Shown here: in pieces, positions 3,309-62,276 of the stretch
How positions within the stretch are numbered: the stretch's first letter is position 1
How the letters are laid out: every line of letters starts with the position of its first letter
IMG/VR virus record: IMGVR_UViG_2571042445_000002
Source: a virus
Lineage: Duplodnaviria > Heunggongvirae > Uroviricota > Caudoviricetes
Length of the DNA stretch: 64,000 bases
Reading direction: 5' to 3' (one strand)
Position numbers and translations under genes: made by a program
The notes under the pieces: generated by a model
What the model was told of the DNA's origin: nothing
Database searches by the model: none
The model's input: only the letters and a program-made list of their open reading frames with translations

Positions 3309-3324
3309 AAATCACAAACTGAAC
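3309..3324 (+). promoter_or_regulatory. candidate late-promoter element (AAATCACAAACTGAAC)
   Basis: one of four copies of a conserved 16-bp motif, 45 bp upstream of the tail-fibre operon start. Confidence 0.4.
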
Positions 3325-3368
3325 ATACTGCCCTTCGATTTATTGCTTGTTAAAGGGGCTATGTTCGT

Positions 3369-3815
3369 ATGGCTGAAACTTTAAAATCCCAAAGCGATTC
3401 AAGTATTTACAAGGCGCAACTCCTTTCTTACTACTACTCTCGCCGTGCAGAGTCTGCAATCGGCAGGGGTGAGCGTTTTGTTATGACAAAGGCTTATTGG
3501 TGCAAGTCCGATCTTGTGACGGTAAATAGTGCTGGTGGCTGGACTATTTCTGATATTCCGCTCGACTTCAAGTTAAGTGATGCACAGCATTTTGCTGAAT
3601 CCAATCTCATTCTTTCCAGCCTCGATGGTGTCATTACGATTAATGCCGCTTTTCCACAAGAAACGATGCCGGACGATACACCTTACGATTTCAATACGCT
3701 GGTTCTCGTAGATGCAGAGGATCAGGCTTTTGGGGTTGTTTGTACTCAACAGGACACCTTATTCAAAGGTAAGCGATACAGCTTGCTCATGACCATTGAA
3801 CAGGTCGAGGGATAA
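3369..3815 (+). CDS. tail-fibre operon protein (position equivalent to P1 R)
   Basis: 148 aa, immediately upstream of tail fibre gene. Confidence 0.3.
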   Translation: MAETLKSQSDSSIYKAQLLSYYYSRRAESAIGRGERFVMTKAYWCKSDLVTVNSAGGWTISDIPLDFKLSDAQHFAESNLILSSLDGVITINAAFPQETMPDDTPYDFNTLVLVDAEDQAFGVVCTQQDTLFKGKRYSLLMTIEQVEG

Positions 3816-3817
3816 TT

Positions 3818-6800
3818 ATGTGCGCAGATAAAGTAAAGAATATTGTCACCTTATCTTCGGACATTTCCGCTCCACTAATTGCAGACATGCAATACTTTGA
3901 GCTGTATAGCACCGAAGCTCTAAACAGGAAGATGAAAAATATCGTTCTGCCCGGAGTGTACTGTGGGTTTGAACCGGTGCCAGGGGATGGTCTGTTTGTG
4001 CGTATTACATCCGAGAAAACAGAGGGAAGAGGGGCGGCTTCAATTGACGTGGGTAAATGTCAGATATCCGTGCAGCAAGTCAGTGATGTTCTTGTTCCTG
4101 TAGAAGCTGGTGTAACGACAATCATCGTTCTTGAAGCTAATTACGAACATGGAGTGAAAACCAGCCAGGTAGATAGCTCATCGGATATTAGCGCAGCGAG
4201 AATTATTGCTCTCGTTGATGAGGAAATAGCATCTAACCAGATTGAGCTATGCCGCGTGATCGTGCCTGACAATGCTCAAGCCGTTACCGCAGATATGATT
4301 AGCACTGAATATCGTGCTAATCGTGCTGTTGGTGTTGAGTTTTCCAGTGCTTTGGATAGTGACGAAGAATATAAAGCCGCAACACCTCTTGCTATCAGCA
4401 CGTTAAACAAACTAAAAGCTCCGGTTGATAGCCCGGAGTTTATTGGTATACCTAAATCTCCAACTCCGGAACAAGGTACAAACAGTACACAAATCGCAAA
4501 CACTGCCTTTGTTCAGGCCGCAATAACCGCCCTTATTGATGGTTCTCCTTCGGCGTTGGATACGCTGAAAAAAATTGCAGATGCAATTAACAATGATCCT
4601 CAGTTTAGCCAGACGATTAATGCTGCTTTAGCTCTTAAAGCACCGTTATTAAGCCCGGCATTTACAGGGGTGCCAACAGCGCCTACAGCGTCACAAGGTA
4701 CGAACAACACTCAGATTGCAACAACCGCTTATGTTCGTGCCGCTATTTCTGCATTGGTCGGCTCATCACCAGAAGCTCTTGATACTCTTAATGAGCTTGC
4801 TGCGGCGCTGGGCAATGACCCGAACTTTGCGGCTACAATGACAAATGCCCTGGCAGGTAAGCAGCCTCTCGACGCAACCTTAACCGCGCTCGCTGACCTG
4901 GCGACGGGGGCAAATAAATTACCGTACTTTACCGGAACAGACACTGTAGCCCAGACTGATTTAACGTCAGTCGGTCGCGATATTCTTGCTAAAACAAGCA
5001 CACTGGCTGTTATCCAATACCTTGGTTTAAGAGAACTCGGAACCAGCGGAGAAAAGCTCCCCCTGTTGAGCACAGCTAATACCTGGAGTGCACGCCAGAC
5101 TTTCAGCGCGGGGATCACTGGTACGCTGACCGGGAACGCCGATACTGCGACGAAATTAAAAACAGCCAGAAAGATTAACGGTGTGGCATTTGATGGGTCG
5201 GCAGATATTACTCTGACCCCTGAAGATCTTGGCTTAACGGATATTGCTTCTCAAGCTGGTAACGCAGTTCAGCGTTCTGGCGACACAATGGGGGGGCAGC
5301 TAAAAATTGGCACAATAAATGCCCTTCGAATATTTAACCAGGACTTTGGCCTTATCTTCAGGAGATCCGAGGAATATCTTCATCTTATCCCGACAAATGA
5401 AGGGGAGGGTGAAAATGGTGACATCGGGCCATTAAGACCATTTTCTATAAACTTAAGAACTGGGTTGGTGTCCATCGGTAACGGCGTAAAAGTTGGCGGT
5501 GGTATTACTGGTAATTTGACGGGAAACGCAGATACTGCCACAAAGCTCAAGATAGCTCGAACGATCGGCGGAGTGTCATTTGATGGCAGCGCCAATATCG
5601 ACCTGCCTGGCGTGAATAAAACAGGTAATCAGAGCACTACCGGCAATGCTGCAACCGCAACGAAACTTCAGACGGCACGCACAATCGGCGGAGTGTCATT
5701 TGATGGCAGCGCCAATATCGACCTGCCTGGCGTGAATAAAACAGGTAATCAGAGCACTACCGGCAATGCTGCAACCGCAACGAAACTTCAGACGGCACGC
5801 ACAATCGGCGGAGTGTCATTTGATGGCAGCGCCAATATCGACCTGCCTGGCGTGAATAAAACGGGTAATCAGAGCACTACCGGCAATGCTGCAACCGCAA
5901 CGAAACTTCAGACGGCAAGAACAATCGGCGGGGTGGCATTTGATGGCACTGCCAATATCAACCTGCCGGGTGTGAACATTGCTGGTAACCAGAACACAAC
6001 AGGTAATGCTGCAACCGCTACAAAACTGCAAACAGCCCGCACAATCAACGGTGTTAAGTTTGATGGTTCTGCGAACATTTCGATACCAACAATTACGTCC
6101 AGAGGGCGTGTTACTGCGCTCACCAGTACAACGCAAGGTGCTACTACTGGATTGCAGATGTATGAGGCGTACAACAACGGCTATCCTTCTGCTTACGGGA
6201 ATGTGCTTCATCTTAAGGGCGCAACTGCCGCTGGTGAAGGCGAGTTGTTCATAGGTTGGAGCGGCACAAGTGGTGCTCATGCGCCTGTACATGTACGTTC
6301 GCGACGAGATACTGATACAGCCAGTTGGTCTGAGTGGGCGCAGGTCTACACATCGAAGGATTCCATCCCTGGTGTAAATACAACAGGCAACCAGAACACA
6401 ACCGGAAACGCGGCGTCTGCAACGAAATTACAAACGGCAAGAACTATTGGTGGTGTTTCATTTAATGGCACCGCAAACATCGACCTGCCGGGCGTGAATA
6501 AAACAGGTAATCAGAGCACTACCGGCAATGCTGCAACTGCAACGAAACTACAAACAGCGCGCACAATAGGCGGGGTTTCGTTTGATGGTACAGCAAACAT
6601 CAATCTTCCGGGCGTTAATATTGCCGGAAATCAAAATACAAGTGGTAATGCAGCTACAGCGACAAAGTTAAAAACTGCCAGAAAAATAAGTGGAGTGGCT
6701 TTTGATGGTTCTGCAGACATCACATTAACGGCAAGTCATGTTGGTGCGTTACCAACAACAGGTGGTACTGTTACCGGTGAAATTATATCCAGCAGCCAAA

Positions 6801-7327
6801 ATGCTATACGCCTAACTTATAATAATAACTATGGATTCCTAATAACTAATACTGGATATAGTTTCCAGATATCAACCACTGGGCAAAATGTTAATGGTGA
6901 TGTCGTTTACACTCCATTAAAGATAGATGGCGGTGATGGTCGCGTAGAATTAGGACGTGCTGATGGTCATGTAAGGGTTATGGGGAATTTATCTGCCGCT
7001 GGTCAGATTACCCCTGGTAACTATAGTAATTTCAACACGAAATATCAGGCTAAAAACACAGCATATGCCAACATTCATGGATGGCATAAGGATACATCAA
7101 CTAAGGTGATGATGCAGTGGGGGTTTATAACAAATTTAACTCCAGGAAGCGTGGTTAAATTTCCGACTACTTTTCCTGAGGCGTGTGCGGTAGTTGTGAT
7201 TTCGCCTCACAGCGGGAATGCTGTCAATTCAATTCTTTATACATACAACCACTCAGTCACTGGTTTTACAGTGAAAAGTAGCTCCACTGATAAAATATAT
7301 GCACAGTATGTTGCTTATGGTTATTAA
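3818..7327 (+). CDS. tail fibre protein with internal 40-aa shaft repeats
   Basis: 1169 aa; about 8 copies of the unit TGNQSTTGNAATATKLQTARTIGGVSFDGSANIDLPGVNK; followed directly by a Tfa gene. Confidence 0.8.
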   Translation: MCADKVKNIVTLSSDISAPLIADMQYFELYSTEALNRKMKNIVLPGVYCGFEPVPGDGLFVRITSEKTEGRGAASIDVGKCQISVQQVSDVLVPVEAGVTTIIVLEANYEHGVKTSQVDSSSDISAARIIALVDEEIASNQIELCRVIVPDNAQAVTADMISTEYRANRAVGVEFSSALDSDEEYKAATPLAISTLNKLKAPVDSPEFIGIPKSPTPEQGTNSTQIANTAFVQAAITALIDGSPSALDTLKKIADAINNDPQFSQTINAALALKAPLLSPAFTGVPTAPTASQGTNNTQIATTAYVRAAISALVGSSPEALDTLNELAAALGNDPNFAATMTNALAGKQPLDATLTALADLATGANKLPYFTGTDTVAQTDLTSVGRDILAKTSTLAVIQYLGLRELGTSGEKLPLLSTANTWSARQTFSAGITGTLTGNADTATKLKTARKINGVAFDGSADITLTPEDLGLTDIASQAGNAVQRSGDTMGGQLKIGTINALRIFNQDFGLIFRRSEEYLHLIPTNEGEGENGDIGPLRPFSINLRTGLVSIGNGVKVGGGITGNLTGNADTATKLKIARTIGGVSFDGSANIDLPGVNKTGNQSTTGNAATATKLQTARTIGGVSFDGSANIDLPGVNKTGNQSTTGNAATATKLQTARTIGGVSFDGSANIDLPGVNKTGNQSTTGNAATATKLQTARTIGGVAFDGTANINLPGVNIAGNQNTTGNAATATKLQTARTINGVKFDGSANISIPTITSRGRVTALTSTTQGATTGLQMYEAYNNGYPSAYGNVLHLKGATAAGEGELFIGWSGTSGAHAPVHVRSRRDTDTASWSEWAQVYTSKDSIPGVNTTGNQNTTGNAASATKLQTARTIGGVSFNGTANIDLPGVNKTGNQSTTGNAATATKLQTARTIGGVSFDGTANINLPGVNIAGNQNTSGNAATATKLKTARKISGVAFDGSADITLTASHVGALPTTGGTVTGEIISSSQNAIRLTYNNNYGFLITNTGYSFQISTTGQNVNGDVVYTPLKIDGGDGRVELGRADGHVRVMGNLSAAGQITPGNYSNFNTKYQAKNTAYANIHGWHKDTSTKVMMQWGFITNLTPGSVVKFPTTFPEACAVVVISPHSGNAVNSILYTYNHSVTGFTVKSSSTDKIYAQYVAYGY
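5564..5923 (+). repeat. three near-identical tandem 120-bp repeats inside the tail fibre gene
   Basis: period exactly 120 bp (5564, 5684, 5804); more diverged copies continue to about 6720. Confidence 0.9.
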
Positions 7328-7358
7328 AAATATAGTTAATTAGAATGAAGGTGCTTAA

Positions 7359-7781
7359 ATGGCAAAGTATTACAGCAAAGAGACTGGTGGTTTCTACGAC
7401 GACAGACTAAAAGAAGATTACGATAAAAACGGTTCATGGCCGTCCGATACTGTACATATACCTGATGACTTATATGATGAATTGTTATCAGGGTATGGCA
7501 ATGGGAAAATAATAATTGCAAATGGCGATGGTTATCCAATGTTATCTGACCCACAACCTATGAGCTTAGAGGATAGAGTCAGCATTGCTGAAAACACCAA
7601 AAGTAGTCTTATGAATGATGTGAGCATAAAAATATCAACGCTTCAGGATGCTGTTGATATGGATATTGCCACTGATGAGGAAATAGAAATGTTGACAAAG
7701 TTAAAGAGGTATAGAGTTCTTCTTAATAGAGTTGACACTTCTGTTGATGCAGATATCTCATGGCCTGAGATGCCTGTATAA
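7359..7781 (+). CDS. tfa: tail fibre assembly protein (Tfa / P1 U family)
   Basis: 140 aa; C-terminal RYRVLLNRVDTSVDADISWPEMP is the hallmark Tfa motif. Confidence 0.85.
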   Translation: MAKYYSKETGGFYDDRLKEDYDKNGSWPSDTVHIPDDLYDELLSGYGNGKIIIANGDGYPMLSDPQPMSLEDRVSIAENTKSSLMNDVSIKISTLQDAVDMDIATDEEIEMLTKLKRYRVLLNRVDTSVDADISWPEMPV

Positions 7782-8188
7782 ACAATCATAACAATCCAAT
7801 CAGCACTGCTTTTTTGATATTTCAAGCCCTCTTTTGTTGAGGGCTTTATTAGTGAGTGCTTTTGTGACCTTTTTTAGTAATACAATCCTTTGGTACAAAA
7901 AAGCCGCCGTCCAGTCAATGACGGCGGGCAAAATGAACACTCAGTTAGTGGTATCTGAGAGGGGGGCATTATATTCACTGAATGACGCTTGTGAAGACTC
8001 ACATGTCATCATTTTGTCCTCAAGAATCAGCTCACATCTTGCGCATTCAAGCGTATTTCTCTTTAAAGCCGTGTTTGGACCATTTTGTTGATACGCGAAT
8101 TTGGCATCCTCCACGCTCTGAGTGACGAGGTTTACGGACCACCGGGCCATCATATGCATCCATTTTGTGTGAATGGCATTTAGTCGGG

Positions 8189-8204
8189 AAATAACAAACT
8201 GGAT
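8189..8204 (+). promoter_or_regulatory. candidate late-promoter element (AAATAACAAACTGGAT)
   Basis: conserved 16-bp motif 38 bp upstream of the lysis/dar-like operon. Confidence 0.4.
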
Positions 8205-8241
8205 AAGTTGAAGCCGCGTTAAACGTCATTTCTGGAGGGGT

Positions 8242-8568
8242 ATGTTTGCAGATTATGAAAATCTGGCTGTAGCAGTCATAACATCCCTGCTGAGTGGAAC
8301 CGGCGTATTCCTTCTCGGAGTTAGAGACGGGCGCATTTCTGCGTCACTGCTCAACCTCGCGAGTGAATTGTTTACTGCGGTAACTGCCGGGCTTGCGGGG
8401 TTTTGGGTGGCTGATAGCTATGAATGGCCGGAAGGCATCATTTACTGCGTTGTTCTGATTGCCAGTAACAACGGAAGTGAAATTTTACAGGGCTTGAAGT
8501 CCAGAGCTAGTAACGTCTTGAATCTCTTAAGCGTAATAGCGAGTGGGGGAAAAGGTGGAGAGAAGTAA
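8242..8568 (+). CDS. holin-like small membrane protein (P1 LydA position)
   Basis: 108 aa with 2-3 hydrophobic helices and a charged C-terminus. Confidence 0.35.
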   Translation: MFADYENLAVAVITSLLSGTGVFLLGVRDGRISASLLNLASELFTAVTAGLAGFWVADSYEWPEGIIYCVVLIASNNGSEILQGLKSRASNVLNLLSVIASGGKGGEK

Positions 8569-9014
8569 TGGGTGACTTTGGAAATTATTTCATTTTTATC
8601 ATGGCATTTGTTGCCGTTATTGACCGTTTCTTATTTCGTCGCAAGAGTGTTGATATTTTGAGCATTGGCGAAGCTGTAGTGAAAGAGTCTGCTATAGCGT
8701 TTCCCGTGTCGCTTCGCGTTAAGCGAAGCTGGGTAAGCAATGCACAAATCGAATATTGGTTGCAGGACTTGAAAAATCCATCTGTGGTTATTTCGGGGAA
8801 AACAAGACCAGTTGACGCATCAAAACGCGGTGAGAGAGAAGAATATTTGCTCATCGACACGAAATATCTTGAGCCAGCGAAGTGGGATCTAAAGGTCACA
8901 TTGACTAACGGTAATTGCCGCCTGAATCCGCTTTATCGCATTTTCCCTATCAATGACTGCATAGAACGCCAGTTTATGATTGAAAAGTGTGAAGGAGACT
9001 GGAATGTCAAATAA
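8568..9014 (+). CDS. hypothetical protein (P1 LydB position, possible antiholin)
   Basis: 148 aa, stop/start coupled to the holin-like gene. Confidence 0.25.
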   Translation: MGDFGNYFIFIMAFVAVIDRFLFRRKSVDILSIGEAVVKESAIAFPVSLRVKRSWVSNAQIEYWLQDLKNPSVVISGKTRPVDASKRGEREEYLLIDTKYLEPAKWDLKVTLTNGNCRLNPLYRIFPINDCIERQFMIEKCEGDWNVK

Positions 9015-9621
9015 GTCTAATTATGTTCTTCTTAATTATGATGAGTTAAACGAAAAGGGGCTGGCAAAACTCGTCAAAGAAATCGGTAAAGGAGGCTACA
9101 AGATAGCGAGGGTGATCCCCGCCAGTAATGGCAGGAAGAAAGACGGGATCATGACGCGCACGTTTACCCTTATCGGAATCGATGAGCAGACGATGGACGT
9201 TCAGGTTAATGATACTGGTGATATTTCTGGTGTAAAACTGAACGGAAAAATTGTTCCTTTCAAGCCAGTTAAAACGCTGATGGCTTTAGGGCAATCACTG
9301 GCTGCTTTATTTAATAAAGGCGCATCATCATTTCAGAAATCATTGGCGCGTAAGTTAGCTCGTGCGGCGAAAGATATTGATGATGGGAATAAGAAAATAA
9401 AAGGCGTTAAGTCCAATGCGCAGAAACTAGCAGAGGCAAAGGAATCTCGCGATGCGATCCGCGAGGATATTGAAAGGGCCAAAGAAAAATTAAATCAGGT
9501 GCAAGGTAATTCAGACCGCGCAACAAGAGAAACTGAAATCATTAGAACCGAGATGGCGCAGGAACTGGCGAAAACTCGCGTATTGAAAGAAGAAATAGCG
9601 CGCCTGGAGGAAGATGCATGA
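9004..9621 (+). CDS. coiled-coil virion-associated protein (P1 Hdf-like position)
   Basis: ATG at 9004 six nt after AAGGAG; coiled-coil rich; overlaps next gene (ATGA). Confidence 0.3.
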   Translation: MSNKSNYVLLNYDELNEKGLAKLVKEIGKGGYKIARVIPASNGRKKDGIMTRTFTLIGIDEQTMDVQVNDTGDISGVKLNGKIVPFKPVKTLMALGQSLAALFNKGASSFQKSLARKLARAAKDIDDGNKKIKGVKSNAQKLAEAKESRDAIREDIERAKEKLNQVQGNSDRATRETEIIRTEMAQELAKTRVLKEEIARLEEDA

Positions 9622-11935: not shown

Positions 11936-12026
11936 AAGAGAGGGGCAGAATGCCCCTTTCTTCTTAAAATAGTCACCGAAATAACACACTTTTTACACTG
12001 CCTTTTTTACAGAAAGGTGGTTAATT

Positions 12027-14347: not shown

Positions 14348-14363
14348 AAATCACACACTGGAT
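14348..14363 (+). promoter_or_regulatory. candidate late-promoter element (AAATCACACACTGGAT)
   Basis: conserved 16-bp motif 38 bp upstream of the portal-like gene. Confidence 0.4.
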
Positions 14364-14400
14364 AAGCTGCCACGAAATCGGAAACCTTTTGCGGTGAATC

Positions 14401-18350: not shown

Positions 18351-18539
18351 GAATGTATGATTTATATCGTCACTAAAAAACAGCATCTGATAAAAATTCT
18401 GTTGATCTTTCTAATGTTCAGGCTTATATTCATGCCGTCGTAGCAAATTCTGCGACCGGGTTTAGCAGCCTGAATGTTAGTGCGGACAACCGCAGATATC
18501 CGATATTGCGGTATTTTTGTGTCCGTAAAACCGCGTTAC

Positions 18540-18677
18540 GCCCAAATTATGGTGGGGCGTGATGGGGAGGCTTCGGCCTGCTGGTTTCACTAACGCCAGT
18601 CTGCTAACCCCGTCACGTCCTGCCACCTGTTTAGCAGCGGGTAGCAGGTTGTTAAACCTGTTAGTGAGGCCGTAACT
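18540..18677 (+). ncRNA. candidate c4-like antisense RNA / structured leader
   Basis: hairpins (e.g. gaggc-UUCG-gcctg) in the leader just upstream of icd-like gene. Confidence 0.25.
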
Positions 18678-19814: not shown

Positions 19815-19840
19815 GCCCCGGCCTGGCCGGGGCTTTTTCA
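19815..19840. terminator. bidirectional terminator candidate
   Basis: gccccgg-cctgg-ccggggc followed by TTTTT, between convergent genes. Confidence 0.55.
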
Positions 19841-20329
19841 TGCCTCATTAGTTGAGGTTGCTGCGTCGCCGACAGGTAACAGAACTGTATTGCGTGGTTC
19901 GCCAGCAGGCCAGCGATAGCCAGACACTCTTGATGTTGGGAATGCGCGAATATTAACAGCATCCCCCTGGTTCCCACCCAAGACAAGCAGATCGCCATTG
20001 GCGCGGCGTCCGACAACAAAGCCTACATGCCCACCGCCTGCGCGAGTAAATACAACGATACATCCGTATGCCGGTGTATCTAATTTCTCGCCCCAATCCA
20101 GATAGGATTTTGCCGACTCAAATCTTGTTGAGCGGATGCCTACACGTTCCAGCATTGCACCGACAAATGCTGCGCACCACGGCGTTTCATCGTCTTTAAT
20201 TCCACCGCGCTTAATATCCCGCCAGAACTGGACGATCTCAGGATTGTGTTTCGCTCCTTTTATTTCGGTGACTCCAATATTTTTACGGGCTTCAATAAGC
20301 CAGCGAGGTTCATTATTGATCATAATCAT
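19838..20329 (-). CDS. NlpC/P60- or CHAP-like cell-wall peptidase family protein (TIGR02594-like)
   Basis: 163 aa with conserved Cys (PWCAAFV) and His (GGHVGFV) spaced as in papain-like amidases. Confidence 0.45.
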   Translation of the reverse strand: MIMINNEPRWLIEARKNIGVTEIKGAKHNPEIVQFWRDIKRGGIKDDETPWCAAFVGAMLERVGIRSTRFESAKSYLDWGEKLDTPAYGCIVVFTRAGGGHVGFVVGRRANGDLLVLGGNQGDAVNIRAFPTSRVSGYRWPAGEPRNTVLLPVGDAATSTNEA

Positions 20330-20516
20330 GCTCCGAATGAAAAAAGAGCAATAACTATGTTGAGAATGTGATTTCTATTACACCAAACATTATTAAACGG
20401 CATTCATCTTTAACTTTATTCAATGTATTATCTAACAGAAAAGTTAAGTTGCGCTAAGTTAATGATAACACTGGTTATTATTGGTTTGCGTTATTTATTT
20501 GAGAAAAGAGAAAGTT

Positions 20517-21014
20517 ATGAAAAAAGCAATATTAGCGACTATTGTTTGTGCATTTGCATTATCAGGATGCGCTCCGGTTCAGACATACAACAAGCCTCAG
20601 CAAGTAAAACAGTTTGTTAAACGCCCAGCATTCCCTGTAGAGGAATATCAGGCATTGCCGAAAAAAGGCACAGGTAAGGTTAAGGGGGAATTATTTGGAG
20701 TAACTCGCGGAGGGGATGTGAAGATTGGTGCTGGCTCCAATATCATACTGCGTCCGTATACTTCATATATCAAAAATACCCCCAAAATTGATTACGACAC
20801 TCAGACCTTAGAAATAATCGACGGCAGGGTTGCGGAATATGACAGAACTGTCCTGACTGATGCTCAAGGCAAATTTGAGTTCGAAAACGTACCACCAGGC
20901 CAGTATGAAGTGATTGGTTCGTTCAGTTGGTATGCTGGAAATTTCCCGCAAATCGTTCTTCTGAACAAAATCATTACCGTTAAGAACGGTGATGTTATCC
21001 AGGTTCAACCATGA
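20517..21014 (+). CDS. lipoprotein with carboxypeptidase-regulatory-like beta domain
   Basis: MKKAILATIVCAFALSGC signal peptide and lipobox; DAQGKFEFENVPPGQYEV motif. Confidence 0.55.
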   Translation: MKKAILATIVCAFALSGCAPVQTYNKPQQVKQFVKRPAFPVEEYQALPKKGTGKVKGELFGVTRGGDVKIGAGSNIILRPYTSYIKNTPKIDYDTQTLEIIDGRVAEYDRTVLTDAQGKFEFENVPPGQYEVIGSFSWYAGNFPQIVLLNKIITVKNGDVIQVQP

Positions 21015-21126
21015 TCCCCTTTTGAGTAAGAACCTTCGGGGTGTGATTCTGCGAAATTAACACACTCCATACCCTCTCAAACCGTACCGCTTAAGGCGGA
21101 TTTAACGGTTTTGAGGGGGGCTTCCT

Positions 21127-32515: not shown

Positions 32516-32591
32516 TGATGGTGTAGCTCAGTGGTAGAGCAGTTGGCTGTTAACCAACTGGTCGGTGGTTCGAATCCACTCACCATCGCCA
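32516..32591 (+). tRNA. tRNA-Asn (anticodon GTT)
   Basis: 76 nt; acceptor gatggtg/caccatc, anticodon loop CTGTTAA, T-loop TTCGAAT, 3' CCA encoded. Confidence 0.85.
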
Positions 32592-32593
32592 AT

Positions 32594-32669
32594 GCCGGTT
32601 TAGCTCAGTTGGTAGAGCGCCTGCCTTGTAAGCAGGATGTCAGCGGTTCGAGTCCGTTAACCGGCACCA
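32594..32669 (+). tRNA. tRNA-Thr (anticodon TGT)
   Basis: 76 nt, 2 nt after tRNA-Asn; anticodon loop CTTGTAA; T-loop TTCGAGT; CCA encoded. Confidence 0.85.
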
Positions 32670-33338: not shown

Positions 33339-33414
33339 GGCCCTTTAGCTCAGTGGTTAGAGCGGGCGACTCATAATCGCACGGTCACCGGTTCAAGTCC
33401 GGTAGGGGCCACCA
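33339..33414 (+). tRNA. tRNA-Ile2 (anticodon CAT, lysidine type)
   Basis: 76 nt, nearly identical over D-arm and anticodon arm to E. coli tRNA-Ile2 as I recall it; CCA encoded. Confidence 0.8.
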
Positions 33415-34442: not shown

Positions 34443-34822
34443 TGTACGAGGCTACTAAATTACGCACTGAGGATGCGATGCACATTGGTTGGGACATCAT
34501 CACCTGCAAGATAACATCATGCAAGGCTACACGCACAGACGCCGGACACAAGAGCACAATATCAGGTTATGTCGTGATGTCAGTCAGGAGTGTGCGCATA
34601 CGCTTCAGATGGAAAGCCTGCCAGGTTACATCATCAATGCCGCTTACCGTCGAGCAGGATTATTTATGCTTACCCGAAATAGACGGAGCGTTGCTGGTGG
34701 GCAATAGTGGTCGAAAAGCCGATTTTGAAGCCAGTCTGAAGATGGCGCAGGCGGTGATCAACAAACATAAAGGGAAGTGGGAGGCAAAAGTTAAGCATGT
34801 TGTTCGTTTATCCCGCTGGTAG
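34439..34822 (+). CDS. hypothetical protein
   Basis: 127-aa ORF coupled to the upstream gene; an alternative-frame ORF overlaps it. Confidence 0.3.
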   Translation: MMYEATKLRTEDAMHIGWDIITCKITSCKATRTDAGHKSTISGYVVMSVRSVRIRFRWKACQVTSSMPLTVEQDYLCLPEIDGALLVGNSGRKADFEASLKMAQAVINKHKGKWEAKVKHVVRLSRW

Positions 34823-34855
34823 TGTTAGCAAATTGATATTAATTTTCTAATACAT
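34823..34855. promoter_or_regulatory. operator-like inverted pair upstream of the Lpa-like gene
   Basis: GTGTTAGCAAATTG and inverted TAATTTTCTAATACA. Confidence 0.5.
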
Positions 34856-34929
34856 CATGTTTTTGACAGTCTTCTCAGTATTAACAAGCTGATTATCATC
34901 CCCTCGGTCTTTTTCTATCCGGGGGATAA

Positions 34930-35322
34930 ATGGAGCAAATCAGTAGCGCCGAAATAGCGGATATCATGATCAGGGCTAACTGCTATCTGACGGTCACCGA
35001 AATCACCAGCCGTGCAAAAGCACAATATCCTCACCTTCATGTGTCGCGCGTAAACGTAAATAACATCATACGTTTTTTTGTTCGTTCCAGTCGTGCCATT
35101 TGCGAAATAGACGACCGCGTATACCCCCGGAAATATTGGTTACATGGCCTGAATGGATACCAGTTCAAGGTGCGCGGGCGCACTCCTGAATTCGGTCGGC
35201 TGTTGGTGAAAAACACCAACCGAAAGATAGAAGCTCAATTACGAAAGGAGCAGCGTCAGTTGGTGGCGATGACTAACCAGCTATGGAACGCCGCTGTGAA
35301 AAAACGTGAGGCTTCCCTATGA
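34930..35322 (+). CDS. Lpa-like late promoter activator (putative)
   Basis: 130 aa basic protein upstream of pacA-pacB (P1 order lpa-pacA-pacB-c1) and preceded by an operator pair. Confidence 0.4.
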   Translation: MEQISSAEIADIMIRANCYLTVTEITSRAKAQYPHLHVSRVNVNNIIRFFVRSSRAICEIDDRVYPRKYWLHGLNGYQFKVRGRTPEFGRLLVKNTNRKIEAQLRKEQRQLVAMTNQLWNAAVKKREASL

Positions 35323-52188: not shown

Positions 52189-52192
52189 TCCA

Positions 52193-53188
52193 TCAGTTAT
52201 TGAACGTGATCACTCCGCGCTCGATGGCGAAGTCGAAAAGCTGGTTGGCGGCTACGTAAAGGCGTATGCCATGTGCTTTTTCCCATGCCCGGACATCGTT
52301 TTCTGCGCTTCTGGCGCATTCATCGCAAAGAGGAACGGCCCAGCGATCGTGTTCGTTTAACGAGCGGGCGCGGTACATGAACGGGTGATTAACTTTGCCT
52401 CCGCATCCGATGCACGGACGAGAAATCACAAACCGGAGATAAGCCGGGCTTTTACCGAGAACCGCTTTTGGTCGGCGCATATACAGCAGGCCGGAATCCT
52501 CATCTACAGACAGGTTGACGATCTGCTCTGCGGTTATGTCCACCAGCTCACGGGTGCTGTGCTCCCAGGTGATATCCGATTCTTTCAGTGTGCCGGTAGG
52601 GATTTCCTGTTTTGGCTGACAAAATGCAATGCGACCGGCTTCATCTGGCAGCTCGTCTTTCAGATTCCGGCGAATGGCCCAAAAAGTGAGTTCAACCATG
52701 CTCAGATCGCGTTCTGGCGGTAGTTTTAACTCGCTCGCAGCCCAGTTCATAACCCAGTTGGCACGATTCAGGGATAACTGGTCGTCCAGCTTGCTGTACC
52801 CCTTCATCATGTATTCCGCATCATGCTTCCAGCACAGGCGAACGGCAGAGCCGTTATAGAAATGAGTGGTTAGCTGGTGGCTGCAATCGCGCTTATCGTG
52901 CGCCTGGCAATCGTGGATATTGGAACTTACCCAATGAACAAGCGAATCTTCACCGCCTAATGCGTTAAATACGCGCTCGCTTTGAAAAAATGCTTTCAGA
53001 GACTGGTTGGCAACCAGCGAATAGTTCAGATCCACTACGCCATCTGGCGTGTTTTCAGCCTGTTCGCGCGGAAGTGGAGAGATAATGAAACGGCGACCTG
53101 CGCCAATGTAGTTGCTGGTGGGCTTGTCTACCGGAAAGACAGCCACACCAGCTCCGTTTACGAAATGAGGTGTGATTATTGCACTCAT
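52193..53188 (-). CDS. DUF968-like Cys-rich prophage protein (putative)
   Basis: 331 aa; paired Cys motifs CIGCGG...CDECA near the C-terminus. Confidence 0.35.
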   Translation of the reverse strand: MSAIITPHFVNGAGVAVFPVDKPTSNYIGAGRRFIISPLPREQAENTPDGVVDLNYSLVANQSLKAFFQSERVFNALGGEDSLVHWVSSNIHDCQAHDKRDCSHQLTTHFYNGSAVRLCWKHDAEYMMKGYSKLDDQLSLNRANWVMNWAASELKLPPERDLSMVELTFWAIRRNLKDELPDEAGRIAFCQPKQEIPTGTLKESDITWEHSTRELVDITAEQIVNLSVDEDSGLLYMRRPKAVLGKSPAYLRFVISRPCIGCGGKVNHPFMYRARSLNEHDRWAVPLCDECARSAENDVRAWEKAHGIRLYVAANQLFDFAIERGVITFNN

Positions 53189-53230
53189 AATGTATACCGA
53201 CTCTGTTTTGTTCCGAGCGGTAAAATAATC

Positions 53231-53263
53231 TGTTAGAAAATTAAAATCAATATTCTAATATCA
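53231..53263. promoter_or_regulatory. operator-like inverted pair
   Basis: TGTTAGAAAATTAAAA and TATTCTAATATCA upstream of the minus-strand DUF968 gene. Confidence 0.5.
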
Positions 53264-53292
53264 TTTTGAGTGCATAAACGATGTGTTCAGGA

Positions 53293-56273: not shown

Positions 56274-56944
56274 TGGTTGCCTCCTTTGCGAAGCTGGGCA
56301 GCGAACCTATCAGCTGCATCCGCGCAAGCAGAAGCAACGGAATCAAAAAATGGATCATCTCCTGTATCGCGCATCGTCAAAGCGAATGCCTCCACCCCTT
56401 GTGCCTGTATTTCTACAAGGGATGCCTTAGATGTAGTGCTTTTCGCCTCGCCTAATTCGTTATGAGCGATGTTCGCTATACATGCGATGTCTATATCTGG
56501 ATGATTAATTGGGCAATGGCTAAGAATTGCCTCAAGTGCTGCTTTTTTGCTTTGGCATTCCGCCACCAGCGCCCCGCAATTGCTTTCCAGCTCTGCAATA
56601 CACTTTTTAGCGGCCTCCAGCTCAACACGCAGATTCTCAAGCGTTAGAGCCTTCTCCACGTTCTCGTCCAGCAGTTCAATCACATCAGGATCGCTACCAT
56701 CAACTACTGATATGCGCGAATTTTTGTAATGCTCGTCAGCATAAGTTCGTCCAGTTTTGAAGCATCCGTCATCCTCCATGCCGGAACAGGCATAAACAAC
56801 ATGTGATCCAGATATGCGCTGCATTGACATTTCCTCGCCACAAACAGGGCATTTAGGCGCTGGTTTCGGTGAATAACGTTCACGTAACGGATAGTAAAGC
56901 TCGATCTCCGCCAGTTGCTCTGGCGTTAAACCTTCAGACTTCAT
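56270..56944 (-). CDS. Ea22-like coiled-coil protein
   Basis: 224 aa; C-terminus ends with the same AEQLRKGG(S/N)Q motif as the 54777 gene. Confidence 0.4.
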   Translation of the reverse strand: MKSEGLTPEQLAEIELYYPLRERYSPKPAPKCPVCGEEMSMQRISGSHVVYACSGMEDDGCFKTGRTYADEHYKNSRISVVDGSDPDVIELLDENVEKALTLENLRVELEAAKKCIAELESNCGALVAECQSKKAALEAILSHCPINHPDIDIACIANIAHNELGEAKSTTSKASLVEIQAQGVEAFALTMRDTGDDPFFDSVASACADAADRFAAQLRKGGNQ

Positions 56945-57251
56945 GTACTCTCCTTTCGAAATAAACGTACTGATTAATCATTCCCAGGGGCATTTCGAGT
57001 TTTTCTGCGATCTCACGGCGGGGAACACCACACTGATGAAGCTGCCGCGCCAGTTCTATATCGCTCTGCCGGTATTTGGCTGACTGGTGAAAGTCTCCTT
57101 TCAGAATCATGCTGATCCGCAGTTGCCGCGCTTTAGTCCTGACAGCACCACCGGTACGCCCGATCAGTCTCCCAATACCCTCGACTGTCATAGTCCCGGC
57201 GCACTGGCGGAGTATCATGATTTCTGCCCTTCCCCATCCCCGCCAGCTCAC
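56934..57251 (-). CDS. HTH-containing small regulatory protein (putative)
   Basis: 105 aa with HTH-like segment GVPRREIAEKLEMP. Confidence 0.3.
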   Translation of the reverse strand: MSWRGWGRAEIMILRQCAGTMTVEGIGRLIGRTGGAVRTKARQLRISMILKGDFHQSAKYRQSDIELARQLHQCGVPRREIAEKLEMPLGMINQYVYFERRVHEV

Positions 57252-57886
57252 GCAGAACTCCTTCTAACCAAAAGAACGCCATCTTCAGAAACAATGTTGC
57301 AGGACTTCAGGTAATTCATTGCCACTTTCGGTAATGGATTCTTTGGATCGGCGTTTGCCAGGGATTTCGATAACCTCAAGATAAATTTGATCATTACCTT
57401 CTGACGGAGCTTGTGCTCATGAGATGCAGACAGGTAATAGGAAATGGTATGGGCTAAACGCTCACGAAGCTGTTCTGTGCCGTGATATACAGCAGCGATA
57501 TCACGCAGTGCATTGACCAGTTCCCGGTAAATATGCGGAGCAACCTGGCATTCAATGTTGGTTGGTGACTCATAAATTACATTCAGCCCCAGCTTTTGAG
57601 CCAGCTCGTGCTCTGCACGAGCGCCAACTGATTCCTCCCACCCCTTGAGCAAATAGACCGCATTAGCCGAACGCAACATTGCAAGGCAAATATCCATGTA
57701 TTCACTCTGGCAGAGGCCAGCAGGTAACAGCGCCGGATTCAGAACAATATGCCCTACCTCCATCAGCTCTTTTGCTTTCGAAAAAAACGCTGTGCGGTTG
57801 TAGTCGGGATAACCAGTCATCGGACCCGCGATGTAAATTTTCATAATGCGTTTTGACATCAAAGTTTCCCCAGGAACGTTACGCAA
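57248..57886 (-). CDS. DUF4406-like (nucleoside deoxyribosyltransferase-fold) protein
   Basis: 212 aa; N-terminal YIAGPMTG...VLNP...LKGWEESVGARAEHE matches the DUF4406 pattern. Confidence 0.4.
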   Translation of the reverse strand: MRNVPGETLMSKRIMKIYIAGPMTGYPDYNRTAFFSKAKELMEVGHIVLNPALLPAGLCQSEYMDICLAMLRSANAVYLLKGWEESVGARAEHELAQKLGLNVIYESPTNIECQVAPHIYRELVNALRDIAAVYHGTEQLRERLAHTISYYLSASHEHKLRQKVMIKFILRLSKSLANADPKNPLPKVAMNYLKSCNIVSEDGVLLVRRSSA

Positions 57887-58053
57887 AAGTTGATGAGAGC
57901 AAAGAGTTCAATGCCCAGCTCAAACAACGCCAGGACAGTGAAAAACAGGGCATATAGCAACCCAATTTCTGTACCGGATTGCTGGTGGATTGCACTTATT
58001 GCGACAAGCATCATGACCTCCTGATATAGCGTCTGAAAAAAAAGTATCTTCAT
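57859..58053 (-). CDS. small membrane protein
   Basis: 64 aa, two hydrophobic helices. Confidence 0.25.
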   Translation of the reverse strand: MKILFFQTLYQEVMMLVAISAIHQQSGTEIGLLYALFFTVLALFELGIELFALINFCVTFLGKL

Positions 58054-58055
58054 TT

Positions 58056-58089
58056 TGTGTTAGAAAATCAATTTTGATTTTCTAACACA
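58056..58089. promoter_or_regulatory. perfect palindromic operator
   Basis: TGTGTTAGAAAATCAATTTTGATTTTCTAACACA between divergent genes. Confidence 0.6.
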
Positions 58090-58132
58090 TTTGATCAACC
58101 ATAGCGGCGATGTAGACAAACCGGGTATTTCT

Positions 58133-58708
58133 ATGAAGCAAAGCTATTGGGAGAAACAGACACAAAAAGCCCTGCAAAAACTGGCTGATCCGAAATGGCG
58201 GGAGGAACAAAGGGCAAAGCGTCTTCAGCAAGCTCAACGCCAGCAGCAGCGTGCGCGAGAAAAAGCCGCATCGCCTGAATATCGGCAAAAGAAAATTGAA
58301 AAAGCGAAGCAATATGAACAGCGAAGAAAAGAGAAGGCCGCTTCTGCTCCTGTCAAAAAAACTCGCGCGTCACGCGGCCTGAAAGGCAGAACACTCACAG
58401 CAGATGAGCGCCGGATACAAACTGCCATCGGTGCTCTCCCCTGCATTGCCTGCCATATGCACGGACAGCATAGCCCTGTGGTATCCCTGCACCACATCTT
58501 CGGGAGAACAGCAGAGAACGCGCATAAATACGTCCTCCCTTTGTGTAAATGGCACCATCAACACGCAGCGCCAGCAGAGATCCGCGAGCAATACCCCTGG
58601 TTGGTTCCTGTTCATGCTGATGGAAAAATAGGCGGCAAAGCAGATTTCAGGCGGCACAATGCTGATGAAATGACGTTGTATCAGATGGTGACTGAATTAA
58701 TAAATTAA
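58133..58708 (+). CDS. HNH-type nuclease, Ref-like (putative)
   Basis: basic Q/R/K-rich N-terminus then Cys/His core LPCIACHMHG...LHHIFGR...CKWHHQH; ATG at 58133 chosen because the upstream TTG abuts the operator. Confidence 0.4.
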   Translation: MKQSYWEKQTQKALQKLADPKWREEQRAKRLQQAQRQQQRAREKAASPEYRQKKIEKAKQYEQRRKEKAASAPVKKTRASRGLKGRTLTADERRIQTAIGALPCIACHMHGQHSPVVSLHHIFGRTAENAHKYVLPLCKWHHQHAAPAEIREQYPWLVPVHADGKIGGKADFRRHNADEMTLYQMVTELIN

Positions 58709-58720
58709 TTTTCTAACATT
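58703..58720. promoter_or_regulatory. operator-like motif
   Basis: AATTAATTTTCTAACATT overlapping the ref-like stop. Confidence 0.5.
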
Positions 58721-59369
58721 TTAAGTTGAATTGTGAGATTCGCCGTTGTACATTCACAACCGATTGGTACACCGGTCAACTTTTTGAGACAAACCGTTTG
58801 GTTTTTCGTATGATTGCCGCCGCCATACCAATGGCGGTGCAATATAGGTGGCTGAAAAGCCCCCGTTGACTCACGGTGTTCCAACCTTTATTGCGCCGCC
58901 ACCAGACCGTGGAACAGTCGATGGCGGCTCCGAAAGCAAGGAGTCACTACACTATGAACAGCTACTGTCTTTTCCCATCACTCGTTGTCCGCCACTCACG
59001 CGATAATCTGCATTCTTTACTCGCGCTGGGGGTGTCAAAATGACCGTTCGCTACCTCAACTTTCAAATCCAGAACATCACTGGCGGTTGCTATGACTGGT
59101 TTGTCACTCTCGGAAAAGAAGTGATCACCGGAAAGCTGGATGAAGTGAAAGCTAAAGCAATGGCCTACGCCTGCAAGCAAGCCCAAAAGAAGAAAAGAAA
59201 AGCATAAGAAAACACACAGTTGCGCCCTGGCATTATCGTGGGGTATATTTCTACGGCACCTTAGAAAAACGGGTGCCGGGATTGGAACCCCGGATAATGT
59301 CAAAGGCGACACAGACGCCGAACGCGTCTTTTTTTGTGTCATGCCATCGCACAGCCATACTTAGCGTTT

Positions 59370-59520
59370 AGCTCAGAGATCAATGGTAGTGCTGGCTGGG
59401 CTGCCGAAAGGCAGGCCGGTTCCCTTTGACGCCGGTAGTTCCAACCCAGTCAGTGCTACCGCCATTGAGATTGGAACCTCACGCGGTAGCTCCTTAACTT
59501 AGTCAAAGGAGGCTGCCAAT
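59370..59520 (+). ncRNA. candidate c4-like antisense RNA / structured leader (copy 2)
   Basis: hairpins (ctgcc-GAAA-ggcag) upstream of the second icd-like gene. Confidence 0.25.
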
Positions 59521-59736
59521 ATGGCTACTATCCCTACCCCAACTCATTCTGAATTTATCTGGCGTTTCTATTCCTGCCAAAAACACCTGTATATCTGCGT
59601 CATGGCTGCAACCGAAGCAGAAGCGCGCTCATACCTTCCCGAAGAACCCTGCATTTTTGCTGCTCGCTTCACTCTTGATGCGATGGAGATCCTCAATTAC
59701 TGGAATCTGCCAATGAACTGCGTGGAGGTGCACTGA
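59521..59736 (+). CDS. Icd-like small protein (copy 2)
   Basis: 71 aa, shares SEFIWRF...CQKH...AATEAEAR with the copy at 18678; stop overlaps ant start. Confidence 0.4.
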   Translation: MATIPTPTHSEFIWRFYSCQKHLYICVMAATEAEARSYLPEEPCIFAARFTLDAMEILNYWNLPMNCVEVH

Positions 59737-60662
59737 TGAATCTGTCCATCTCTCAAAAAGCGACAATGACCAGTATTGAGATCGCGGAGCTGGTGGGTAA
59801 GCGTCCTGACAACGTTAAACGCACCATTGAACACCTGGCGGAACGGGGCGTAATAACTTTTCCTCAAATTGAGGAAAAGCCCACTGCAGGCCGCCCGGCG
59901 AGCTATTACGTCTTCGAAGGCGAACAAGGCAAGCGCGATAGTATTATCGTCGTCGCGCAGCTCTCTCCCGAATTCACCGCCCGGCTGGTGGACCGCTGGC
60001 GCGAACTGGAGAATGCCAGAGGACCGTTAAAATCAAAAGCCGAAATTCTGGCCGAAATGGCGCAAATGCATCTTGAGCATGAACGCCGGATCAACGCCGT
60101 TAATACCCAGGTAGCCGAAGTATCGGCACAAGTGACCAAAGTCGCTGAAACCGTCGAGCAAATAAAGAAAGGCAATATTCCGGAAGGCTACATTGGCTAT
60201 CGCCAGTTAGCGGCGAAATGCGGCCTGACTGAAGCCAAATGCCGCAACCTGGTCAACGCTTACCGGATCCCCACAGATACGCATGAGTTTTTAACTCCCG
60301 ATGGTTTGCTTGCGAGACGCTCCATTGTGGCCCTGGCCCCCTTCCGGAAAGCCTTTAAGCAGGTTATGTCGGAGGCTGAACCACGCAACAAACGCTGGTA
60401 TCATCCCAGGATGGGGCTATTTCAGGCCATTCACCATCCTGTGCCTGAAAGTCCAAAGGCAAACCTGTCGTTGCATACCGCCAGAGAGAAGATTAAAACA
60501 GGGTATGCAACCGTATGCCGTCGAGCATCCTGGCCTGAAAGTGTCTGGGTATGGCCCGAAAGAGGCTCACGGAAAAACTGGCGCACCTTTCGCGACGGCA
60601 AGATCTGTGCGATTGATTTACAGCCAGAAGATGTAGCAGCGACCGACTGGATTGTTAGTTAA
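59736..60662 (+). CDS. ant: antirepressor, Rha-family (fused form)
   Basis: 308 aa; N-terminal MTSIEIAELVGKRPDNVKRTIE; about 100-bp stretches identical to copy 1. Confidence 0.6.
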   Translation: MNLSISQKATMTSIEIAELVGKRPDNVKRTIEHLAERGVITFPQIEEKPTAGRPASYYVFEGEQGKRDSIIVVAQLSPEFTARLVDRWRELENARGPLKSKAEILAEMAQMHLEHERRINAVNTQVAEVSAQVTKVAETVEQIKKGNIPEGYIGYRQLAAKCGLTEAKCRNLVNAYRIPTDTHEFLTPDGLLARRSIVALAPFRKAFKQVMSEAEPRNKRWYHPRMGLFQAIHHPVPESPKANLSLHTAREKIKTGYATVCRRASWPESVWVWPERGSRKNWRTFRDGKICAIDLQPEDVAATDWIVS

Positions 60663-60669
60663 TAGATTT

Positions 60670-60692
60670 GCCCCGGTCATGCCGGGGCTTTA
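60670..60692 (+). terminator. terminator candidate after ant
   Basis: ccccgg-tcatg-ccgggg followed by CTTT. Confidence 0.4.
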
Positions 60693-60700
60693 ACTACTAA

Positions 60701-61039
60701 GTGACCGGACACAGCAAAATGTATGTCACGAAAAAAATTGATTTCACTTATTCTTCCGCCACAATTGAGCGGCGCTTCACCCTCATTAGAGAGTTGGAAC
60801 TGTCAAAAGTCTGGTATCAAATTCTACTGGATGAAGAGTTCTCACTGATGATAATGGCTGAAAAAGAAGCAATGCCGAATGACCGGCATAAAGTCATTGC
60901 CAGCCTTGACCTGGTGACAAACAGATACTGGGAGACAGAGGAACTGCGTGAAGCGGGAGTAATTCGTGACCTGATGGAGAGTTCCGTTCCCCGCCGCTAT
61001 CGTGCGGGAAACGAAATCTCCGTGATTAAAGGGGCTTAA
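60701..61039 (+). CDS. hypothetical protein
   Basis: 112-aa ORF. Confidence 0.3.
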   Translation: MTGHSKMYVTKKIDFTYSSATIERRFTLIRELELSKVWYQILLDEEFSLMIMAEKEAMPNDRHKVIASLDLVTNRYWETEELREAGVIRDLMESSVPRRYRAGNEISVIKGA

Positions 61040-61515
61040 AGCTCACCAGCACGCTGTTTTTCAAGCGTAGATTTAACATTGGGCGCTTTCCCTTTAAAAG
61101 AATGGAAAGTGCCACATTTTTCTGTTTTAACCTCGCGCAGAGCTTCGCCATCGGCGTTCTGCCATTGATGAGATAACGTCATATCACCGCGAGAAGGAAC
61201 ATCCAGCGAGTACAACGTGTAAGTTCCCCCCATCTCGGCATACTCCTGGAACACATAGCTCATTACGTCAGATTCAGTTTTCCGGTGCGCGTTATCAACC
61301 TTATTCCCATTCAGAAATATGGCGTTCGGATAGATTTTTATATCAAACCTACCGCACTTTACCTGCAAATTCCCAGCATTAGCAATCAAAGGAAAAAACA
61401 TTAATGCCGCTATAGCCAGCTTATTCAAGTTTGATGTCTTTGTTGAAGAAAATGGTTTCTCTTTTTTTATGCGTATCATTTCATTAACTCCAGACATTGT
61501 TGTCTTTTCATCCAA
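61036..61515 (-). CDS. secreted/periplasmic hypothetical protein
   Basis: 159 aa with internal signal-peptide-like segment KLAIAALMFFPLIANA. Confidence 0.35.
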   Translation of the reverse strand: MDEKTTMSGVNEMIRIKKEKPFSSTKTSNLNKLAIAALMFFPLIANAGNLQVKCGRFDIKIYPNAIFLNGNKVDNAHRKTESDVMSYVFQEYAEMGGTYTLYSLDVPSRGDMTLSHQWQNADGEALREVKTEKCGTFHSFKGKAPNVKSTLEKQRAGEL

Positions 61516-61522
61516 TTTGAGG

Positions 61523-62152
61523 TTAATTAGTACAATTCATTTTTGCAGCGACTTCGGCTACCCCACGATCAATGTAAGGCTGCTCACTTAATATCTTTTG
61601 GATCTCACTACGAATGCATTCCGCTGTAGGTTGCTTAGGTGCTTGTTTTTGCTTCGCGGATCGTTCAAGTTCCATCATGTTATTGAATCCTGCCACATCA
61701 CTTTGCCGAAGCATCCCTTTCCGGATAAGAAACTGCTGCCCTTCAGGCACCCAAGCCAGCATATACAAAGGCTGCAATAGATCTCCCATTCCTTGCTGAC
61801 GATAAAGCTCAAACTGCAACACGCCGTTACTTAACACCGACATTGTGTCTTTGGTGGAATACCCTGTCTTTTGTATGGCTTTGCCTGTTTCATCTGCTGC
61901 ATATGCAAATACACAGAACTCAATGTTGCTTTTAAAGAATGGCTCTACAGGTTTCAGCGGGATATTTTCTTTCTGGCAATAGTTTGAAACTTCATCAGGC
62001 GTATAGTTTGTTTTGGCGTTTCGCAACACCTTCAGCCCAGCCTCATACTTTGCAGGTAACGCGCCTGCATAGGCAGCATTAAGAGAAACTCCCCCCAATA
62101 TAACCGCGAGCACTGCTCCCAAAACCCTTAACTTCACAAAACCATCCTTCAT
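61523..62152 (-). CDS. secreted hypothetical protein
   Basis: start at internal Met giving signal peptide MKDGFVKLRVLGAVLAVILGGVSLNAAYAG. Confidence 0.35.
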   Translation of the reverse strand: MKDGFVKLRVLGAVLAVILGGVSLNAAYAGALPAKYEAGLKVLRNAKTNYTPDEVSNYCQKENIPLKPVEPFFKSNIEFCVFAYAADETGKAIQKTGYSTKDTMSVLSNGVLQFELYRQQGMGDLLQPLYMLAWVPEGQQFLIRKGMLRQSDVAGFNNMMELERSAKQKQAPKQPTAECIRSEIQKILSEQPYIDRGVAEVAAKMNCTN

Positions 62153-62260
62153 GTAAAAAAACTGAAGTTTTATGTTACAAAAGCAAACATCTACGCCAAA
62201 ATGACCTAGGCCAAATTCAGCGCGAATAAAAAATTCAAAAAAATTGTTGACACTATTCTG

Positions 62261-62276
62261 GAAATCACAATCTGGA
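62261..62276 (+). promoter_or_regulatory. candidate late-promoter element (AAATCACAATCTGGAC)
   Basis: conserved 16-bp motif next to a TTGACA hexamer. Confidence 0.35.

Follow-up and report, generated by a model that had tools for sequence, protein, structure and literature searches.

Introduction

Late gene expression in bacteriophage P1 depends on Lpa, a sequence-specific DNA-binding activator that is needed at all late promoters and acts together with the host protein SspA on RNA polymerase (PMC10695390, PMC1891329, PMC8201110). There are 11 late promoters in P1, which carry a conserved 9-base-pair (bp) Lpa-binding repeat (PMC10695390). In Francisella, PigR works with MglA-SspA by a related logic, the activator on the DNA contacting an SspA-type protein that is bound to RNA polymerase, and the Francisella study cites P1 Lpa as a precedent (PMC1891329). 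Here, we describe the putative late promoters of a P1 relative, which consist of a 13-nucleotide (nt) box and a -10-like hexamer, together with their candidate activator. They lie in a stretch of 64,000 nt of Caudoviricetes DNA (IMG/VR record IMGVR_UViG_2571042445_000002), the whole of which is called the window below.

By its sequence, the window is a D6-like, P1-related plasmid prophage. It is about 87% identical in DNA to Escherichia phage D6 (MF356679), with which it shares the gene order sit, R-S-U, lydA-darA, prt-pro, darB, lpa-pacA-pacB, c1, mat and gene 26, and 99.7-100% identical to the Escherichia coli plasmid NZ_CP069647.1 over the two stretches compared. D6-like phage-plasmids are frequently found in E. 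coli, Salmonella and Shigella, and PLSDB contains well over 100 records of them. A preliminary description of the window had drawn attention to a 16-bp motif upstream of four late operons, and had suggested that it marks late promoters dependent on an Lpa-like protein. The motif is real and, judged by comparison with related genomes, it very probably marks activator-dependent late promoters of this prophage, with a box that has diverged from its P1 counterpart alongside Lpa.

A putative two-part promoter before the late operons

The four 16-mers all lie on the + strand and agree pairwise at 13-14 of 16 positions, as reported; three of their starts are correct (3309, 8189 and 14348), and the fourth is at 62262 instead of 62261. 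Also as described, the 16-mer ends 45 nt before the start codon of R and 38 nt before those of lydA and prt. The repeat is therefore genuine, but its conserved unit is not 16 bp long. Alignment with the orthologous sites of D6 defines a 13-nt box (AAATCACAAACTG), two variable bases and a -10-like hexamer of the form YAnnnT, that is (T/C)AnnnT, so that the last three bases of the 16-mer are the spacer and the first base of the hexamer. The box has the general form AAAT[C/A]ACA-NN-CT-N (across lineages, A-A-A-T-[C/A/T]-A-C-A-N-N-C-T-N). It is directional and not an inverted repeat. From predicted start sites, it would span about -27 to -15, in place of a -35 element.

The four sites are part of a larger set of at least eight in the window (Table 1). 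Each faces a late-type gene on the same strand, 45-72 nt before the gene start (156 nt in the case of mat), and the hexamer ends 24-51 nt before the start codon at the seven sites other than mat. All eight hexamers have A at their second and T at their sixth position (the hexamer occupying positions 16-21 from the start of the box), and match TATAAT at three or four of six bases. As the preliminary description had noted, a good -35 hexamer is missing: at a spacing of 16-18 nt the best match is 2-4/6 at any site, which is the level found at random window positions. The location of the sites on the coding strand, just upstream of tail-fibre, lysis/dar, head and maturation genes, and their -10-like hexamer support the late-promoter interpretation.

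Table 1. Positions in the window of the putative late promoters and of the features associated with them.
Feature	Position	Strand	Details
Promoter before R (tail-fibre operon R-S-U, ATG 3369)	3309..3329	+	box AAATCACAAACTG 3309-3321, spacer aa, hexamer CATACT 3324-3329
Promoter before lydA (lysis/dar operon, ATG 8242)	8189..8209	+	box AAATAACAAACTG, hexamer TAAGTT 8204-8209
Promoter before ddrB homologue (GTG 12027)	11979..11999	+	box AAATAACACACTT, hexamer TACACT; absent from the preliminary description
Promoter before prt-pro (portal/protease, ATG 14401)	14348..14368	+	box AAATCACACACTG, hexamer TAAGCT 14363-14368
Promoter before lysozyme-like gene (20329..19838, -)	20354..20374	-	box AAATCACATTCTC, hexamer CATAGT; absent from the preliminary description
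Promoter before darB (TTG 21127)	21055..21075	+	box AATTAACACACTC, hexamer TACCCT; absent from the preliminary description
Promoter upstream of mat	62262..62282	+	box AAATCACAATCTG, hexamer CAAAAT 62277-62282; would drive leader 62289..62392
Weaker promoter before gene 26 (ATG 63403)	63351..63371	+	box ATTTCACACCCTG, hexamer TACAGT
Ambiguous ninth site before lpa-pacA-pacB	34879..34899 (stricter-pattern match given as 34880)	+	box-like TATTAACAAGCTG, hexamer TATCAT
lpa, candidate late-promoter activator, 130 amino acids	34930..35322	+	PF25716 BPP1_LPA, phrog_1704
Pair of C1-operator-like sites	34822..34853		ATTAATTTTCTAAYAC family; just upstream of lpa promoter
Predicted structured leader or small RNA, ~100 nt	62289..62392	+	intrinsic terminator: stem 62367-62385 and T run

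The consensus 16-mer is found five times in the window with up to two mismatches (0.05 expected) and six times with up to three (0.77 expected), every one of the latter on the + strand; as this consensus was built from the sites themselves, these enrichment figures are somewhat circular. A looser pattern, in which the 8-nt core is followed at a fixed distance by an A2/T6 hexamer, was taken as a check independent of the consensus 16-mer. It gives eight matches against 1.65 expected, and a stricter variant gives eight against 0.41; the looser pattern finds the gene 26 site, the stricter one the lpa site instead. The 8-nt core occurs 30 times in the window, and the hexamer accompanies it at exactly the eight sites. 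Positions 11 and 12 of the box are left free by the looser pattern and hence provide an internal control on the motif: in a tally of 32 sites from four genomes, position 11 is C in 28 and position 12 is T in 28, while the hexamer begins with T at 22 sites and with C at nine. The filter on open reading frame (ORF) span in this tally misclassifies some true sites, and the tally is used only for these position counts.

Two other matches were set aside. The box copy at 52423-52438 (AAATCACAAACCG) lies antisense inside a pdcB-like gene, lacks the A2/T6 hexamer and is degraded in D6; it is probably non-functional, either by chance or as a relic. The match at 56340, which is likewise antisense inside a gene, without an A2/T6 hexamer and degraded in D6, was treated in the same way.

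Could these sites be ordinary sigma-70 promoters that need no activator? In such an arrangement, TG at box positions 12-13 would serve as an extended -10, and the A-rich upstream part of the box would act like an UP element. The retention of A2 and T6 in the hexamers is in keeping with this, and four sites do have CTG two bases before the hexamer, but this TG is one base too far upstream for a canonical TGn extended -10, and it is replaced at the other sites (CTC, CTT, CTA). The 8-nt AAAT[C/A]ACA, with seven invariant positions, is also far more specific than an UP element. Furthermore, the hexamers are weak and no -35 accompanies them, and the motif is limited to late-type genes, with no early or maintenance gene of the window preceded by box and hexamer. 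We consider this explanation very unlikely.

Footprint of the putative promoter in related elements

The same box and hexamer are present in D6 at the same eight orthologous places. Over these sites, the window and D6 agree at 92% of positions in the box and 96% in the hexamer. Agreement falls to 50% both in the spacer of 2 nt and in an upstream flank of 20 nt, and to 62% in a downstream flank of equal length. The corresponding values against a plasmid of Enterobacter hormaechei, p60214CZ_1, which has the same arrangement with box and hexamer at the orthologous late operons, are 78% and 74% for box and hexamer, and 36%, 25% and 35% for spacer, upstream and downstream flanks, respectively. Conservation is thus higher in box and hexamer than in spacer and flanks, a footprint that fits a two-part promoter.

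Twelve operons of D6 have the box in front of them, and eight of these sites match the annotated P1 promoters LPmat, LPpro, LPlyz, LPdar, LPs, LPsit, LP23 and LP26. The D6 sites beyond the window set lie before pmgB/sit, 23, 7 and upfC. A variant of the unit, AAATTACAAACY-N3-TAnnnT, with T at box position 5, is found before late-type genes in the Pantoea eucalypti plasmid pEuc3.

Conservation can also be followed at individual sites. The R promoter has a D6 orthologue with an identical box and hexamer in flanks that cannot be aligned. The lydA hexamer TAAGTT is retained in D6 and in the Enterobacter plasmid, and the darB hexamer TACCCT is identical in all three elements. The D6 hexamers read CATACT, TAAGTT, TATGCT and CATAAT at R, lydA, prt and mat. 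The ddrB promoter is conserved in D6 as AAATCACACTCTT tt TACACT, and the promoter of the lysozyme-like gene has orthologous sites in D6 (D6_16) and in the Enterobacter plasmid. For the weaker gene 26 promoter, the Enterobacter orthologue carries the full box AAATCACAGACTA.

The window differs from D6 in its upstream flanks, and in having an extra gene between the lysozyme-like and darB promoters. The latter, which encodes a lipoprotein-like product of 177 amino acids (20481..21014), is inserted between two promoters that lie back to back and 26 bp apart in D6. More generally, mosaic junctions coincide with late-promoter boxes (14346; 20330-21126). In most of the listed D6-like plasmids, homology to the prt region of the window starts 2 nt before the box (14346), and the prt region is joined to three unrelated upstream contexts, in each case exactly at the box.

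These breakpoints at the prt box, and the gene inserted between the boxes at 20374 and 21055, raise the question of whether the motif is a transcription signal at all; it might be a conserved junction that promotes the exchange of modules, or a site for some other DNA transaction. The same breakpoints would, however, arise if a promoter were kept while its flanks were swapped. A junction would also leave unexplained the fixed coupling of the box to a -10-like hexamer, its constant orientation towards a downstream late-type gene, the short leaders at seven sites, and the orthology of the positions to annotated P1 late promoters. Of the explanations weighed here, this is the one to which we give the least credence.

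No promoter features are annotated in the GenBank records of D6, and full-text literature searches returned no mention of the motif or of D6 late promoters, although the D6 genome paper may contain a prior description. A search of species-representative genomes with an Lpa alignment yielded only three loci, none of which was useful.

Comparison with the late promoters of P1

Alignment to the late promoters of P1, which had been proposed as a check on the motif, reveals the same geometry with a different recognition sequence. The annotated P1 set (LPs, LPdar, LPpro, LPmat, LPlyz, LPsit, LP23, LP26, LPpmgL, LPhot and LPpac) aligns as (T/G)(A/G)ACAAGTGACTT-N4-TAnAAT. Both systems have a -10 of the TAnnnT type without a -35, and in both the conserved element, which in the window has this register at all sites, begins 15 nt before the hexamer and is centred near -21/-22. 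The same operons are preceded by it (R, lydA, prt, mat, lysozyme, the sit operon, 23 and 26), and an activator of the Lpa family is encoded beside pacA/pacB, behind C1-type operators.

The elements themselves are clearly distinct. AAATCACAAACTG in the window and ACAAGTGACTT in P1 agree at three of 11 positions in register; the element is 13 nt long in the window and 11 nt in P1 (9 as annotated), and the gap to the hexamer is 2 nt and 4 nt, respectively. Whereas the P1 element contains a 9-bp inverted repeat, AAGTGACTT, the box of the window is not palindromic. The divergent lysozyme and darB promoters have one box each, in contrast to LP26 and LPpmgL of P1, which share a single palindromic one. 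In the window, unlike in P1, a terminated leader follows the mat promoter. As lpa overlaps pacA, the window also lacks a separate LPpac.

Each type of box is enriched only in its own lineage, as seen in pattern counts from five genomes. The D6-type pattern, with the eight window matches given above, is found 12 times in D6 (2.4 expected), 13 times in the Enterobacter plasmid (1.7) and nine times in the Pantoea plasmid (1.3), but at background level in P1 (three against 2.6). Conversely, the P1-type pattern is found nine times in P1 (0.5 expected), once each in the window (0.15) and D6 (0.45), and not at all in the Enterobacter and Pantoea plasmids (0.48 and 0.30 expected). Similarly, the P1 consensus is not enriched in the window, with three matches against 5.8 expected, which rules out that the window boxes are of the P1 type, a single site at 63290-63270 being the exception. 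The heptamer AAAT[G/C]AC is common to the LPsit and LP26 boxes of P1 and to the D6-type box, displaced by 2 bp, and at most hints at a common ancestry of the two boxes.

The exceptional site is a perfect P1-type promoter on the - strand (63290-63270), ACAAGTGACTT-tcat-TAATCT, for which one match is seen in the window (0.01 expected). The sequence is also conserved in D6, is missing from the Enterobacter and Pantoea relatives, and faces an ORF for a 47-residue hydrophobic protein of unknown function (63215..63072, -; phrog_38362). P1 has its bidirectional LP26/LPpmgL box at this place. The site could be a relic, reflect a second specificity of the D6-type Lpa, or respond to a P1-type Lpa.

The Lpa homologue and its control region

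The gene at 34930, named as the candidate activator in the preliminary description, is a bona fide member of the Lpa family. Its product matches PF25716 (BPP1_LPA) with 170.6 bits against a cut-off of 35, over residues 1-128 of 130, and phrog_1704, the 'Lpa-like transcriptional activator', with an E-value of 2.8e-56. An AlphaFold model (pLDDT 81) predicts a winged helix of three helices and a beta wing, followed by a disordered basic linker and a long C-terminal helix. The best matches of this model in the PDB are the winged-helix regulators Fur, MecI, PadR and forkhead, with weak E-values of 0.009-0.08, and a search for a solved structure of any Lpa-family member found none.

The gene is conserved in every genome that carries the box. 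Identity to the window protein declines from D6 (81%) to Enterobacter (54%), Pantoea (41%) and P1 (34-35%), and this order tracks the similarity of the boxes to those of the window. Lpa homologues fall into a D6-type and a P1-type clade, which are most unlike in the predicted third (recognition) helix and in the wing. That box and activator vary together supports the view that Lpa reads the box.

Nevertheless, the box could be a late-gene promoter element that is read by another factor, such as a second phage protein or a host protein substituting for -35 contacts, with Lpa acting elsewhere or indirectly. The asymmetry of the box, which distinguishes it from the P1 site reported as the Lpa target (PMC10695390), would be in line with a different reader, and many genes of the element have no known function. 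However, no other late activator is known in this phage family, and Lpa is present wherever the box is; the sequence of the box shifts in step with the divergence of Lpa; and the geometry is identical to that of the Lpa-dependent promoters of P1. A reader other than Lpa therefore appears improbable.

Just upstream of the lpa promoter lies a pair of sites that belong to a second, separate motif, ATTAATTTTCTAAYAC. The window has 15 copies of it (0.71 expected), which lie at lpa and in further early, non-late control regions (17111, 18318, 28873, 29928, 31173, 31323, 34822/34838, 40677, 53230/53246, 58057/58073 and 58694/58704), and several times its copies form inverted pairs. It probably represents the operators of the C1 repressor in this phage group. 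A C1 operator as the explanation of the late sites is ruled out, as the probable operators are this separate motif, located at early genes and not at the late sites.

The ninth candidate site in Table 1, before lpa-pacA-pacB, is a partial box that can also be read as a weak sigma-70 promoter (TTCTCA N16 TATCAT). As lpa overlaps pacA, a late promoter at this position would express the packaging genes and feed back on lpa.

A predicted structured leader before mat

The fourth site of the preliminary description does lie upstream of mat, but not directly, as a predicted leader, structured and about 100 nt long, intervenes; it ends in a strong intrinsic terminator 26 nt before the mat ATG at 62418. 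Its predicted structure is shared by four lineages, namely the window, D6 and the plasmids from Enterobacter and Pantoea, with compensatory changes in five pairs. Homologues were found only in D6, where the leader is unannotated, and no Rfam family matched it above threshold. It may form a separate late RNA, or regulate mat through terminator readthrough.

A model for late gene activation

Taken together, these comparisons suggest the following sequence of events. Once repression by C1 is lifted, lpa would be expressed, and its small product, a predicted winged-helix protein, would bind the box at about -27 to -15, offsetting the absent -35 element. By analogy with P1, Lpa would then recruit the sigma-70 holoenzyme to the weak -10, probably together with the SspA protein associated with host RNA polymerase. 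Recruitment would switch on the genes for the tail fibre, lysis and anti-restriction, portal and protease, and lysozyme, as well as darB, gene 26 and the mat region. During evolution, the box would have diverged from the P1 element ACAAGTGACTT together with its activator. The proposed logic resembles that of PigR with MglA-SspA, but there is no sequence relationship to the Francisella system, the promoter architecture is different, and the role of SspA in the window is extrapolated from P1 only. We infer the binding of Lpa to the box, the dependence on SspA, the start sites and the late timing by analogy with the P1 system.

Several observations weigh against this model. Paired sites of the window and D6 are not independent, as the two elements are closely related, and independent support comes from two further genomes only; likewise, the co-variation of box and Lpa covers three or four lineages. 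Dependence on Lpa is suggested solely by this co-variation and by the analogy with P1, where the Lpa site is described as an inverted repeat; the box is not one, and its mode of binding may therefore differ. The hexamers are weak, at 3-4/6 to TATAAT, and their start sites are predicted. The site before lpa can be explained as an ordinary sigma-70 promoter, and the terminator 3' of the mat site means that mat is perhaps not expressed directly from it.

On comparative evidence, the box and the D6-type Lpa would represent a second specificity class of the Lpa-dependent late-promoter system of P1. This kind of element is already known, and no new kind of regulation is revealed; the differences lie in the sequence recognised, in the asymmetry of that sequence and in the activator paired with it. 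D6-like phage-plasmids thereby gain a late regulon and a promoter rule that public annotations lack, including those of D6, and by which late operons can be annotated and the timing of their expression predicted. For the poorly understood Lpa/SspA system, they would offer a natural swap of specificity, with the same geometry, another and asymmetric box, and an activator that is 35% identical. Chimeras of the P1 and D6 proteins, combined with exchanges of the box, could map how Lpa reads DNA and test whether the palindromy of the P1 site matters.

A further, tentative proposal, which we hold to be possible but less than even in likelihood, is that the D6-type Lpa and its box form a late system orthogonal to that of P1, in which a diverged winged helix reads an asymmetric 13-bp site. 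Related phage-plasmids in one cell would then not cross-activate each other's late genes, and the activator/promoter pairs might be of use in engineering. The mat-leader RNA and the P1-type site would also acquire meaning: the RNA of about 100 nt from the mat promoter would be a small RNA of the late phase or a leader acting by attenuation or antitermination, and the site at 63290-63270 could respond to a P1-type Lpa.

Other features of the element

Three tRNA genes are located between pmgS and lpa, at 32517-32666 and 33339-33411, and similarly in D6. The window also contains two loci for C4 antisense RNA (RF01695). The first (18545-18630) has an a1/b1 target element upstream at 18424-18476, and an isrK-like RNA (59256-59334) lies before the second (59379-59466). 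Downstream of both loci there is an icd-like gene paired with an anti-repressor gene, which indicates that the element carries two modules of the immI type.

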